A stretch of DNA of 64,000 nt from Escherichia phage JN02. This document shows, one piece after another, positions 2,529 through 48,365 of the stretch. Positions within the stretch are counted from its first letter, which is position 1. Each line of letters starts with the position of its first letter. A program made the position numbers and the translations under genes. Where the stretch lies: sequence record MT782071.1. One strand, 5' to 3'. The notes below the pieces were generated by a model. It was not told where the DNA came from, did no database searches, and worked only from the letters and a program-made list of their open reading frames with translations.

Positions 2529-3629
2529 TTACGCTGTGAAGATTTTATCCCACATCGCAACAACTGCATCTCGATTATACTTCTTCCATACTGCTTCAGC
2601 ACGTTTAACTCGAGCTTCGTACGTGTCAGTGAATTCTAATACAGCTTTTGTGTAAAGCGCAACTACTTCTTTCTTAGGAGTAGAGGAATCAATTTCTACA
2701 CGCACAGTATCTGGGTCGTATTCGAATGTCGCATGAGGATAATCCTTAAAAACTAACTGGATTACAGGGACACCTTTAGAGATGGCTTCAATAGAACTAT
2801 TCTCTACCGTACCTGTGTCAGGACACGTATTAATAAGTGCTTTAGCTGTTTTAAGACGTTCCATGATTTCACTGTGTGGAGCATCAATAATAACAGGATA
2901 TTTAGCTGGTGGTGCCCATTTACTAGGACAGTATCCTACACCATTTTCGCCTAGTGCTTTAATCGCTTCAAGAGCAACATCAGTGCGACGCATTTTAGTG
3001 TCATAACGTTGTGCACTAATAATCAAATCAGTCGCCGGAAGAACTTCAGGTTTTTCAGTCAAACAAATAACCGGATAATCTTCGGCTTCAAACAACGGAT
3101 TTGCTCGCCAATAATCATAATCAATTTTGTCAGTCAGACCTGAAGTCATATAACAATATTTGCGTTCAAATTCACGGAAGGCTTTAGTGGGAGCATAACT
3201 CTTACCACCATTCTTATGAATTTGAATAGTCTGATCCCAAATTTGAACAATGCCACGAGATACCGGTTCAAATGGTGTTGCCATAAAATTCTTATGAACT
3301 TTAGAGAGACCTGCGTCTTTAATTGCCTGAACGGTTAGTTTAGTCGGTTCCATAGTAACAACAAAATCGTATTCATGGATGCCGGCTAGTTCAACAATCT
3401 TACGAGCCATAGTATAACTCATACCTAGACTGAATTTAGTCAGATGTCCAACAGGGTGGTGTGTAACTTTCCAGTCACCAAACATGTCATTATCAAAACC
3501 GATATAATCAATATCAGCACCAATAGAAACTAAATATTTCAACACATTTAAATGTACTGCTTCAAGGCCACCTTGTACACGGTCAGGATTAAATGGGACT
3601 GCGCGAGATGGGATAAACATAACTTTCAT
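2529..3629 (-). CDS. GT-B fold glycosyltransferase (GT4-like), candidate DNA sugar transferase
   Basis: 366 aa; N-terminal MKVMFIPS...GGLE and C-terminal TGTVENSSIEAISKGVPVI resemble GT4 donor-binding motifs; occupies the T4 gene 60/mobA position. Confidence 0.6.
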   Translation of the reverse strand: MKVMFIPSRAVPFNPDRVQGGLEAVHLNVLKYLVSIGADIDYIGFDNDMFGDWKVTHHPVGHLTKFSLGMSYTMARKIVELAGIHEYDFVVTMEPTKLTVQAIKDAGLSKVHKNFMATPFEPVSRGIVQIWDQTIQIHKNGGKSYAPTKAFREFERKYCYMTSGLTDKIDYDYWRANPLFEAEDYPVICLTEKPEVLPATDLIISAQRYDTKMRRTDVALEAIKALGENGVGYCPSKWAPPAKYPVIIDAPHSEIMERLKTAKALINTCPDTGTVENSSIEAISKGVPVIQLVFKDYPHATFEYDPDTVRVEIDSSTPKKEVVALYTKAVLEFTDTYEARVKRAEAVWKKYNRDAVVAMWDKIFTA

Positions 3630-19577: not shown

Positions 19578-19835
19578 CTATTTTAAACTTTTGCGAAATT
19601 TGCGTTTTTCTTGACGAATCTGTCGTTTAGTCGGACGTACAGCAAATTTAACGAAGTCCACTTTGCCGTGTGGAAACTTTTCAGATGCTTCACAGTCCAT
19701 CATTAGTTCCCATCCTTCTAGAATAAGAGCTTTCCATTGTGTAGTTGATGCAAATTCGTATGTTGATGGTTTAAACACAGTTGAATACATATTATCCTCT
19801 GAAATCAGCTTCAAAAACTTTCTCGTCATTAACAA
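19578..19835 (-). CDS. small basic protein, RPTKRQ-tail family
   Basis: 85 aa; C-terminus AVRPTKRQIRQEKRKFRK shared with ORFs at 47106..47285 and 47710..47907. Confidence 0.4.
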   Translation of the reverse strand: MLMTRKFLKLISEDNMYSTVFKPSTYEFASTTQWKALILEGWELMMDCEASEKFPHGKVDFVKFAVRPTKRQIRQEKRKFRKSLK

Positions 19836-19983
19836 ATGCTTTAACTAATGCTTTGTTCACTTCAGCAAGTTGTACCGTAACCCACTCGATTTCTTCGCGA
19901 TCACCTGATAACATGATATCTTTAGTGAACATCTCACCGCTTTTAAACCAACCGATAAAAGTAACTTTAGTTAATTTGCTCAT
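19792..19983 (-). CDS. dmd: Dmd antitoxin (inhibitor of host RnlA/LsoA toxins)
   Basis: start taken at internal Met of the 70-aa ORF; FIGWFKSGEMFTKDI...AEVNKALVKAF matches T4 Dmd as recalled. Confidence 0.7.
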   Translation of the reverse strand: MSKLTKVTFIGWFKSGEMFTKDIMLSGDREEIEWVTVQLAEVNKALVKAFVNDEKVFEADFRG

Positions 19984-20297
19984 ATTTCCTCGCAAAATGC
20001 CCATTCAGCGTGATAAACTGTAGCACCTTTAGTATTATTCATTTGAACTACGTCTACCGGAGAAATTACTCGATAGAGACGTGGTTCACCTCCATAAGAG
20101 CGTGCTGCTCGTCCTGCATAAATCTTTGCTAAACCGATATCTTCAGTAAAGAATACACGATCCAAGTTTTTCTTACGTCCAGTTTCAGACAGAACTCCTG
20201 TTTCCTCAGGAGGACAAAGCATGTTTTCGATGTTAGCTGAACTACTTGAACCGTGATAAAAAATCTTAAATTCTGCTTTACAATCGATGGTTTTCAT
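19980..20297 (-). CDS. hypothetical protein
   Basis: 105-aa ORF with GGAGAA RBS. Confidence 0.35.
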   Translation of the reverse strand: MKTIDCKAEFKIFYHGSSSSANIENMLCPPEETGVLSETGRKKNLDRVFFTEDIGLAKIYAGRAARSYGGEPRLYRVISPVDVVQMNNTKGATVYHAEWAFCEEI

Positions 20298-20352: not shown

Positions 20353-20727
20353 TTAAAAACGTAATTTAGATATATCTGCGTTGATTTCGCTTTGGTTTGC
20401 GTCGTATGCAATTAAACGAACCGCTTTAGATGGGTCATTCAATGCATAGAAATGATGGAACATTGCTCGAACGATATCACCATTTACGAGTTCTACCTGG
20501 ATAGGAGAACCTTTTTCGAGTTGGAAATGTTCATAAGCTTTGATGGTTCGCAGATAATCAAGTTTTTGATTTCCGGCTCCAACAATTTGTACGATACGTT
20601 TGCCCATGTTTTCCATACGAGATACAATAGTTTTAGGAGCAAGAATAACGTAGGTTGCCAGCGGAGAAACTACTTCAACAGTTGTGTTTTCGGTGATTGC
20701 AGTAAAAATTGCTTGAGACATATTCAT
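20353..20727 (-). CDS. hypothetical protein
   Basis: 124-aa ORF. Confidence 0.4.
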   Translation of the reverse strand: MNMSQAIFTAITENTTVEVVSPLATYVILAPKTIVSRMENMGKRIVQIVGAGNQKLDYLRTIKAYEHFQLEKGSPIQVELVNGDIVRAMFHHFYALNDPSKAVRLIAYDANQSEINADISKLRF

Positions 20728-47066: not shown

Positions 47067-47095
47067 GATAAACCCTTACCTTAAATAGATAAGGG

Positions 47096-47103
47096 TATTT
47101 ATA
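47096..47103 (-). promoter_or_regulatory. late promoter TATAAATA upstream of gene 49
   Basis: exact TATAAATA on minus strand about 30 nt before gene 49 ATG. Confidence 0.45.
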
Positions 47104-47105
47104 AT

Positions 47106-47285
47106 TTAGTAAACGTTATAAAAGTCTCGATGAAAACGTTTATATTGACGAATCATTCTTTTAGTAGGACGTGTTACCGAAATGATTGAAGTCCTCATGT
47201 TCGGATTGTTTGGAGCACCAATTATAACAAATTTCCAAGATTTTTGACCGTTTGTTCTTTCGCCAAAAAATAATGCAGTTTTCAT
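47106..47285 (-). CDS. small basic protein, RPTKR-tail family (59 aa), below the ORF-track cutoff
   Basis: MKTALFFGERTNGQKSWKFVIIGAPNNPNMRTSIISVTRPTKRMIRQYKRFHRDFYNVY; same C-terminal motif as 19578..19835 and 47710..47907. Confidence 0.4.
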   Translation of the reverse strand: MKTALFFGERTNGQKSWKFVIIGAPNNPNMRTSIISVTRPTKRMIRQYKRFHRDFYNVY

Positions 47286-47294
47286 AATAAGCCC

Positions 47295-47846
47295 TTAACT
47301 TAAACGTCTTTCTAAATATTCAATGTATTCCGCTGCGGCTTGCATCAGATTACCTTCATAACCGTCATTATTTTCTTGGGCGGCTAATTTAGCTAAAGCA
47401 TAAGAAATACGTTCACCTTCGAATTCGCCAAGTCCACTGCCACAAACTACTTGGTCAATTTCTTCGAGTTCATCTATTGAATGGGATTCCCAGAAGCACC
47501 AAAGAGAAGTATCACGGTCATAGATGCAAAGTTTCTCACCTGTGTTCAACATCACTTCGATAATGCCATGGTCGCCATAACCATCTTCGGTAGTAGTACC
47601 AATTACCTTGACGATTGTTCCTTTCTTTAATTCAGGAAACTTGTCTTGTAGTTCTTCGTCTTCTTTAACAATCTTGAACCATTTACCGCGAGTTTCAGAA
47701 ATATTCATATCAATATCCTCTATAAAAGTTACGATGAGAACGTTTAGCTTTGCGAAGCTGACGTTTAGTAGGACGAACTGTAAATGGTTGTCCAGAGAAA
47801 AAATTCGGATCGGTTTTAATAAGCAAATACCAATCATGTTTGCCAT
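47295..47846 (-). CDS. hypothetical acidic protein
   Basis: likely real start at the internal MNISETRG (about 47708) with GAGGA RBS; the N-terminal 46 codons of the ORF look non-coding. Confidence 0.4.
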   Translation of the reverse strand: MANMIGICLLKPIRIFSLDNHLQFVLLNVSFAKLNVLIVTFIEDIDMNISETRGKWFKIVKEDEELQDKFPELKKGTIVKVIGTTTEDGYGDHGIIEVMLNTGEKLCIYDRDTSLWCFWESHSIDELEEIDQVVCGSGLGEFEGERISYALAKLAAQENNDGYEGNLMQAAAEYIEYLERRLS

Positions 47847-47907
47847 TTTTTAATAAACGGTACAATAATTTAACTTGCATAATAATCTCTTCCCATTTCC
47901 ATATCAA
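47710..47907 (-). CDS. small basic protein, RPTKRQ-tail family
   Basis: 65 aa; C-terminus TVRPTKRQLRKAKRSHRNF. Confidence 0.4.
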   Translation of the reverse strand: MIWKWEEIIMQVKLLYRLLKNGKHDWYLLIKTDPNFFSGQPFTVRPTKRQLRKAKRSHRNFYRGY

Positions 47908-48008
47908 TTAATTCATTTATTGAAGGCTCATCATAACATGTTTCTTCGTCGTTGTAAACTGTTTCGACGTCTGGCTCGACTGTCTCCCAGCGCGCCAAAT
48001 ACCACGGT

Positions 48009-48365
48009 TTAACCCCGGAGTTTATTGAGCTCTTCATAATCAATCCAGGATTCTAGCCCTGAAGGCAGGTCACATTCAATGTTCCACAGAAGCTCTTCAA
48101 TGGCTTGCAGGCGATTATATTCTTCAACGGTAATGGTAACCATTGGTGCAACCGGTTCTGCCTTTTTAACCATCATATCGTTCATCAGGACGTAAAGGTC
48201 ATCACGAACGACAGTGTCGTTCCAACCCCATGATTTGGCTTCGTAAGCTAATGATGAAGGGAGCACATTTAAAACTTCAATAATAGTTGGAGCATCAGGA
48301 CCAAGTTCATTGGCACAAACTTCGTATACATCTTGGAAATCTTTAAGATTTAATGAATATGTCAT
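48009..48365 (-). CDS. hypothetical acidic protein
   Basis: 118-aa ORF. Confidence 0.35.
   Translation of the reverse strand: MTYSLNLKDFQDVYEVCANELGPDAPTIIEVLNVLPSSLAYEAKSWGWNDTVVRDDLYVLMNDMMVKKAEPVAPMVTITVEEYNRLQAIEELLWNIECDLPSGLESWIDYEELNKLRG

Follow-up and report, generated by a model that had tools for sequence, protein, structure and literature searches.

Putative loop-less paralogs of the ToxN inhibitor TifA on either side of the pin gene in Escherichia phage JN02

The closest described relative of the small proteins considered here is TifA, the product of T4 gene 61.4, which was renamed tifA by Srikant, Guegler and Laub. They reported that T4 escapes toxIN, a toxin-antitoxin (TA) system of type III, by an approximately tenfold amplification of dmd-tifA, a co-transcribed two-gene early operon that its discoverers termed a possible "anti-TA island," and the toxin ToxN is inhibited by the T2, T4, T6 and RB69 homologs, with the RB69 protein acting most strongly (PMC9391042). 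We examined a 64,000-nucleotide (nt) stretch of Escherichia phage JN02 (record MT782071.1), hereafter the window, in which three short open reading frames (ORFs A, B and C) end in a common basic tail containing the pentapeptide RPTKR. The explanation we favor, and regard as likely overall, is that the three ORFs are TifA paralogs, of which B and C would bind RNA and address targets other than that of TifA.

Guegler et al. subsequently found that TifA binds both ToxN and RNA and that its helix carries a conserved Pro-Thr cap and is lined with basic residues (PMC10853763). The RB69 TifA variants P53A/T54A and K55A/R56A/R59A lose RNA co-purification and ToxN inhibition together, and the corresponding T4 variants fail to co-immunoprecipitate with ToxN; residue 41 tunes ToxN inhibition from within a loop that is predicted to occlude the active site (PMC10853763). 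The TifA complex is enriched in 16S rRNA, the protein has similar affinities in vitro for RNA, single-stranded DNA and double-stranded DNA, and TifA homologs from other clusters neutralized no ToxN or TenpN tested (PMC10853763). TifA is an early protein of ~8 kDa that contacts the endoribonuclease ToxN through a three-stranded N-terminal sheet and a ~20-residue loop and holds RNA with its Pro-Thr-capped, Arg/Lys-rich C-terminal helix; in the published model, the complex would trap the toxin on abundant RNA (16S rRNA), so that phage transcripts are spared.

ORF A and membership in the TifA family

The initial annotation of the window had pointed to three small ORFs with a shared tail, at 19578..19835, 47106..47285 and 47710..47907. 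Translation bore out the stop-codon ends and the full extent of ORF B, but the strand had been overlooked. Plus-strand translations of these intervals are riddled with stops, so that reading was rejected and all three ORFs were assigned to the minus strand; the upper limits given for A (19835) and C (47907) proved to be TTG codons upstream of the likely ATG starts (Table 1). The shared tail itself is real: a six-frame translation of the window has RPTKR at three places, exclusively in ORFs A, B and C, as against a mean of 0.025 and a maximum of 1 over 200 shuffles that preserved composition. Codons differ among the three tails where the residues are the same (CCG/CCT and CGA/AGA/CGT), which argues that their likeness is maintained at the level of the protein.

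ORF A is 100% identical to RB69 gp61.4 by tblastn and is the TifA of an RB69-type phage. Numbering along ORF A gives H41, P53, T54, K55, R56 and R59, exactly the residues of the published mutants, with H41 inside the ToxN-contact loop and the Pro-Thr cap and basic helix running from R52 to K70. Because the published residues coincide with these positions, the RPTKR tail corresponds to the published RNA-binding element of TifA. The initial annotation had guessed that the tail was a nucleic-acid-binding or a targeting peptide; the former agrees with what is published for the protein identical to A (PMC10853763), while targeting found no support. The genetic context of A likewise follows the described operon: the tifA ATG (19790) lies 1 nt past the dmd stop codon (19792), and the order of the surroundings is dmd, A, a DUF5481 lipoprotein-like ORF and imm.

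All three proteins match Pfam DUF7279 (PF23945), for which the gathering threshold is 24.5 bits, with scores of 72.1 bits for A (E 3.5e-20), 53.8 bits for B (E 1.8e-14) and 54.5 bits for C (E 1.1e-14), and a family hidden Markov model (HMM) of our own matched them at E values from 1e-21 to 1e-29. The N-terminal sheet region aligns too, so the DUF7279 matches are not artefacts of composition. Among the PHROG families, A is placed in phrog_2375 (E 1.4e-29) and B and C in phrog_3272 (E 2e-30 and 1.3e-26), with weaker cross-matches. Over the full length, B and C share 36% identity (BLAST, E 4e-11); the BLAST alignments of A with B and of A with C are confined to the tail (E 5e-5 and 7e-7). Judged from these comparisons, A, B and C are almost certainly paralogs of one small phage-specific family, TifA/DUF7279, in keeping with the dispersed family that the initial annotation had proposed. 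That family is already named and partly characterized, which the annotation had missed.

When 1.84 billion representative proteins were searched exhaustively with a profile, just 29 clusters matched at E ≤ 0.001. A word-indexed protein search gave 5 matches with B alone and 20 with a six-sequence profile, a set that served for alignments and is no census, and searches of viral contigs yielded 6 loci with a PinA query and 12 with the family profile, enough for context, with Mosigvirus sparsely represented. The initial annotation had named absence of the motif from homologs as grounds for doubt; instead, all of the retrieved relatives of full length carry [RK]-P-T-K-[RK]-x-[ILM]-R-x-x-[KR]-[KR], single substitutions being infrequent, and in most of them a Trp of the second strand is conserved as well. 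The family HMM found no fourth member in the window, in RB69 64-80 kb or in RB69 114-167.5 kb, the late structural genes at RB69 80-114 kb lying outside the scan. NCBIfam and PADLOC gave no matches.

Residues, predicted fold and selection in ORFs B and C

The five residues validated in TifA are all kept in both ORFs, as P40, T41, K42, R43 and R46 in B and as P37, T38, K39, R40 and R43 in C. The Pro, the Lys and the two Arg are invariant in A, B, C and five tested TifA homologs, and the Thr is present in all three window proteins. B has a net charge of +10 and C of +12, and both have an isoelectric point above 11. Judged from the conserved residues and their own charge, B and C probably bind RNA.

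AlphaFold 2 models of B and C were built on a 21-sequence alignment. The model of B has a predicted local distance difference test score (pLDDT) of 87.7, with strands at residues 2-9, 15-22 and 31-36 and a helix at 42-58; that of C has a pLDDT of 87.3, with strands at 2-9, 15-24 and 27-33 and a helix at 39-55. Both therefore consist of three predicted strands and a C-terminal helix that starts right after the Pro-Thr cap, in agreement with the TifA fold as described in PMC10853763. The models depart from TifA in the loop between strands 2 and 3, which has 8 residues in B (23-30) and 2 in C (25-26) as against ~20 in TifA. The ToxN-contact loop with residue 41 is present in A (H41) and was not found in B or C; it is a trait of the TifA proteins that inhibit ToxN and not of the Pfam family as a whole. 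Loss of this specificity loop makes ToxN inhibition in the manner of TifA improbable for B and C.

The likeness to TifA (T4/RB69 gene 61.4) thus comprises the family HMM match, the three-stranded sheet of the models, the Pro-Thr cap and the basic Lys/Arg/Arg set, and TifA, B and C are all small, early-region, minus-strand genes of T-even phages. As for differences, B and C have 11-14 residues fewer than RB69 TifA, the ~20-residue loop is missing from them, they end in ...HR-x-FY-x-x-Y where TifA ends in ...FRKSLK, they belong to PHROG 3272 rather than 2375, and they flank pin and not dmd, so that A alone lies downstream of dmd. The homologs studied by Guegler et al. (from EcS1, vB_EcoM_005, VR7, JS98, PM2 and CB4) share the family and the Pro-Thr-basic motif with B and C and, like them, differ from the TifA of T-even phages in the N-terminal part and the loop. 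However, those homologs have 73-98 residues and keep a long loop, and B and C form a shorter class outside that panel. Arginine-rich-motif peptides such as lambda N and HIV Rev and Tat offer a more distant parallel, in that a short solvent-exposed helix rich in Arg and Lys provides the affinity for RNA, as in the TifA family. There is no sequence relationship between the two groups, the TifA-family helix packs on a small β-sheet, and its reported binding is not sequence specific.

The ratio of nonsynonymous to synonymous substitution rates (dN/dS) is 0.13-0.32 for ORF B across Mosigvirus, Tequatrovirus and Dhakavirus-like loci and 0.10-0.37 for ORF C within Mosigvirus-type genomes; these values indicate purifying selection on both. 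Residues 1-56 of ORF C also have full-length, single-piece tblastn matches in Mosigvirus records (our H41-H53), among the matches listed. The two genes are tightly packed against their neighbors and have Shine-Dalgarno-like sequences, and they are very likely translated, functional genes.

Against BFVD, Foldseek with the B and C models matched solely uncharacterized small proteins of other, more distant T4-like phages, such as Merlin, S16 and PTK. Three of them, A0A0K1LNJ9 and A0A0K1LN61 of Citrobacter phage Merlin and M1HDH2 of Salmonella phage S16, reached template modeling (TM) scores of up to 0.85-0.91 to the B and C models at 16-36% identity, and Merlin thus has two such matches. As far as predicted models can tell, this suggests that multi-copy short TifA-like genes may be more widespread than sequence searches reveal.

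The pin locus, its variants and its recombination

The two regions of the window considered here are 97-98.5% identical to those of RB69-like T-even phages of the genus Mosigvirus. The second has the gene order nrdC, a 118-aa ORF, 49.1, C, pin, B, gene 49 (endonuclease VII) and nrdD, so that B and C do flank a single gene, as the initial annotation had noticed, and that gene is pin. Its match spans positions 2-136 of the 136 in the Inhibitor_I24 profile, it is 97% identical to RB69 Pin, and its product is without the basic tail seen on T4 PinA. The genes are closely spaced: the start of ORF C overlaps the stop of 49.1 by 11 nt, 1 nt separates its stop from the ATG of pin, and ORF B starts 9 nt past the pin stop. 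In RB69, ORF C is annotated only as a 38-aa fragment, ORF089c.

Table 1. Coordinates of the ORFs and other features discussed, as positions in the window.
Feature	Coordinates	Strand	Description
ORF A, tifA (RB69 gene 61.4)	19578..19790	(-)	70 aa from the likeliest ATG; sequence ...FAVRPTKRQIRQEKRKFRKSLK
dmd	19792..19983	(-)	anti-RnlA/LsoA antitoxin; Pfam Dmd E 8.9e-22; directly upstream of tifA
105-aa ORF	19980-20297	(-)	just upstream of dmd-tifA; no Pfam match
124-aa ORF	20353-20727	(-)	just upstream of dmd-tifA; no Pfam match
Hairpin	47072-47096	(-)	in the gap that separates the stop of ORF B from the ATG of gene 49
ORF B, RB69ORF087c	47106..47285	(-)	59 aa; sequence ...VTRPTKRMIRQYKRFHRDFYNVY; between pin and gene 49
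ACTTTTATA in the ORF B tail	47117..47125	(-)	one half of a 9-nt microhomology
T6 run of ORF B	47265-47270	(-)	
pin	47295..47708	(-)	137 aa, PinA inhibitor of host Lon protease; Pfam Inhibitor_I24 E 1.6e-48, PHROG 2167
ORF C	47710..47880	(-)	56 aa from the likeliest ATG; sequence ...TVRPTKRQLRKAKRSHRNFYRGY; directly upstream of pin
ACTTTTATA in the ORF C tail	47721..47729	(-)	other half of the microhomology, 604 base pairs (bp) from the first
A6 run of ORF C	47846-47851	(-)	
Gene 49.1 homolog	47870..48037	(-)	55 aa; RB69 annotation and blastp across loci; no Pfam match
TTTACA-17-TATGAT	47958-47930		candidate promoter

The arrangement around pin varies among related loci. The order 49.1-C-pin-B-49 occurs in the window, in RB69 (with C frameshifted) and in the IMG/VR contig L003/L009 (with B frameshifted), and Logan contig L021 has the same order with an additional 275-aa ORF between B and gene 49. 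NicPhage has C-pin-49, RB33-type Tequatroviruses have pin-B-49, T4 has pin-49, and JS98/VR-type loci have B-49 with no recognizable pin; in the latter (L010-L019, about 2550-2990), the ~400 nt upstream of the B-type gene gave no PinA match by BLAST. The inserted ORF of L021 (3280-4107) has a GNPPY motif, with no Pfam hit on record, and is suggestive of an N6-adenine DNA methyltransferase.

In the phiE142-like contig L020 (2974-3171), pin is lost and a single C/B chimera joins 49.1 to gene 49. Aligned to the window by blastn, this contig switches from C tail to B tail at the 9-nt ACTTTTATA, a deletion of 604 bp, and the chimera has the body of C and the end of B (its protein, P0006, ends ...RNFYNVY). 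Comparison of the genomes shows the conserved 3' ends of B and C to be direct repeats around pin that serve as recombination sites. A second event of this kind is visible in PinA itself. The 161-aa proteins of T4 and RB33 end in …MIQQYKRLHQMFYNT and …MIRQYKRLHQMFYNT, respectively, and their last ~15 residues are near-identical, in DNA and in protein, to the B-type end …MIRQYKRLHRMFYNT; the terminus of the T4 type is ...SFSDRMIQQYKRLHQMFYNT (T4 pin, L024 598-1083). In RB33 (L002 961-1677), this PinA tail occurs together with an intact B gene, and a 21-nt junction sequence, ACTCAAAATTCTTTTTCTGAC, is duplicated; T4 has the fused tail alone and no B gene. T4 PinA carries what appears to be a captured B-type tail; the rest of the protein is an unrelated Lon inhibitor (Inhibitor_I24), and the tail, unlike B, is without the RPTK cap.

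Both B and C contain a homopolymer run near the 5' end that is one nucleotide longer in some genome. ORF C of the RB69 reference contains A7 (L001, about 2846-2852) where the window, L003/L009 and L020 have A6, and it is truncated by the resulting +1 frameshift; L021 and L022 have a shorter, interrupted A-run at this site. The RB69 frameshift may mark a genuine pseudogene, a site prone to slippage or an error in older sequencing. In the IMG/VR Mosigvirus contig (L009, about 3005-3012), T7 in place of T6 breaks the frame six codons into ORF B.

Scans for promoters and terminators gave counts not above those of shuffles, and the TTTACA-17-TATGAT sequence of Table 1 is a mere candidate promoter. 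Between ORF B and gene 49, a 10-bp hairpin (ACCCUUAUCU/AGGUAAGGGU, -12.9 kcal/mol, z -3.0) covers a Shine-Dalgarno-like AAGG and is identical in sequence in T4; we take it to be the hairpin known to block translation of gene 49 on early transcripts. At the other locus, the 105- and 124-aa ORFs just upstream of dmd are candidates for further counter-defense genes, because they lie in the region for which the TifA authors raised the possibility of an anti-toxin island.

Possible functions of ORFs B and C

From the conserved helix and the missing loop, we infer that B and C probably bind RNA and have a target other than that of TifA, or none. RNA binding would occur through the same basic helix, and the targets would be other host factors, most plausibly other defense RNases; together with the Lon inhibitor PinA, B and C would form a second small counter-defense cluster, analogous to the dmd-tifA "anti-TA island." A counter-defense role is the best guess because of the neighbors with such functions (pin acting against Lon, and the dmd-tifA island), and members of the family with other specificities already exist, since the TifA homologs from other clusters neutralized none of the toxins tested. 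That B and C are counter-defense proteins with non-ToxN targets is nevertheless a tentative proposal, to which we give somewhat less than even odds. Several observations weigh against the overall explanation. The likeness of the B and C folds to TifA was judged from the verbal description in the paper and not from coordinates; Foldseek searches of the PDB with the two models gave no match at E ≤ 0.001, and hence no solved structure, and the structure searches gave no relative of known function beyond family members. NicPhage and T4 have no B, C occurs in Mosigvirus-type genomes alone, and the frameshifted copies of C in RB69 and of B in one metagenomic contig imply that either gene can be lost. 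A literature search for ORF B, ORF C (RB69ORF087c/089c), DUF7279 and PF23945 found no paper.

If B and C were instead fixed, diverged copies of tifA that raise the dose of ToxN inhibitor, they would be a natural counterpart of the tenfold dmd-tifA amplification by which T4 responds to plasmid-borne toxIN; RB69, which has the extra paralogs, is far less sensitive to toxIN than T2, T4 or T6, and the available part of that report describes no RB69 tifA deletion, leaving room for a paralog contribution (PMC9391042). The interaction with ToxN also needs RNA binding (PMC10853763), which B and C probably retain. On the other hand, the residue-41 loop is reduced to 8 and 2 residues, RB69 TifA alone, supplied in trans, suffices to explain the stronger resistance (PMC9391042), and the other-cluster homologs failed against every ToxN tested (PMC10853763). 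B-type genes occur in RB33-type Tequatroviruses too, whose close relatives appear to be toxIN sensitive. The missing loop and the failure of the other-cluster homologs against ToxN and TenpN make a non-ToxN target likelier than a dose effect, and we consider additional ToxN inhibition unlikely. A housekeeping or regulatory role without any link to defense, for example in ribosome or rRNA binding or in the stability of phage or host mRNA, is improbable too, if a little less so. B and C have little beyond the sheet and the helix, and the shared helix has a generic affinity, since TifA binds RNA and both forms of DNA alike and pulls down 16S rRNA (PMC10853763). However, the patchy presence of B and C among close relatives is typical of accessory or host-range genes and not of core regulators, they adjoin pin, and their one characterized paralog is a counter-defense factor.

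Two further readings can be largely set aside. The recombination events at pin and the frameshifted copies fit repeated DNA (recombination scars or cassette borders) that is open by chance and encodes nothing functional: the tails did act as recombination sites in the loss of pin from L020 and in the B-type tail on T4 PinA. But synonymous changes per site far exceed nonsynonymous ones in three genera, the tails encode the same residues by different codons, the N-terminal halves are conserved and confidently folded in the models, and an identity of merely 36% between B and C speaks against recent duplication of the DNA. We rejected a non-coding repeat on dN/dS, codon use and the conserved N-terminal halves, and regard it as very unlikely. 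Least probable of all, with hardly any chance, is that the tail is a signal directing the proteins to the virion or a cellular location, for which all that can be cited is that a peptide so short, charged and conserved at the terminus superficially looks like a sorting signal. In T4, the capsid-targeting sequences that are known lie at the N terminus, and the prohead protease cleaves them. The corresponding TifA segment is a helix, and its mutation removes both RNA binding and function in uninfected, virion-free cells (PMC10853763); TifA is an early cytoplasmic anti-toxin, and the virion-targeting reading was rejected.

Returning to the preferred explanation, that B and C are RNA-binding TifA paralogs with other targets, we can extend it only speculatively, in a form that we think rather unlikely to hold in full. 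B and C might each trap a different host defense RNase on cellular RNA and form a second anti-toxin island with PinA; their direct-repeat tails might turn pin into a recombination cassette subject to gain, loss or fusion; and the tail of T4 PinA might be a captured TifA-type RNA-binding helix, possibly tethering PinA to RNA.

What appears to be unreported is the presence in RB69-type phages of two further, loop-less paralogs that bracket pin and whose ends mediate its loss and fusion. The finding is incremental, adding no new principle, and B and C are of modest interest as added family members. The loss of pin and the fusion of a tail to PinA nonetheless provide a concrete case of short conserved gene ends driving cassette loss and gene fusion in T-even phages, by the microhomology-driven process also seen when tifA evolves in the laboratory. 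Very few phage proteins are known to neutralize TA defense by tethering the toxin to RNA, and TifA is among them; three diverged copies in one phage genome, two of them loop-less with the helix retained, make up a candidate set for new counter-defense specificities, and comparing loop-less B and C with A amounts to a natural experiment on how the parts of the fold determine the target.

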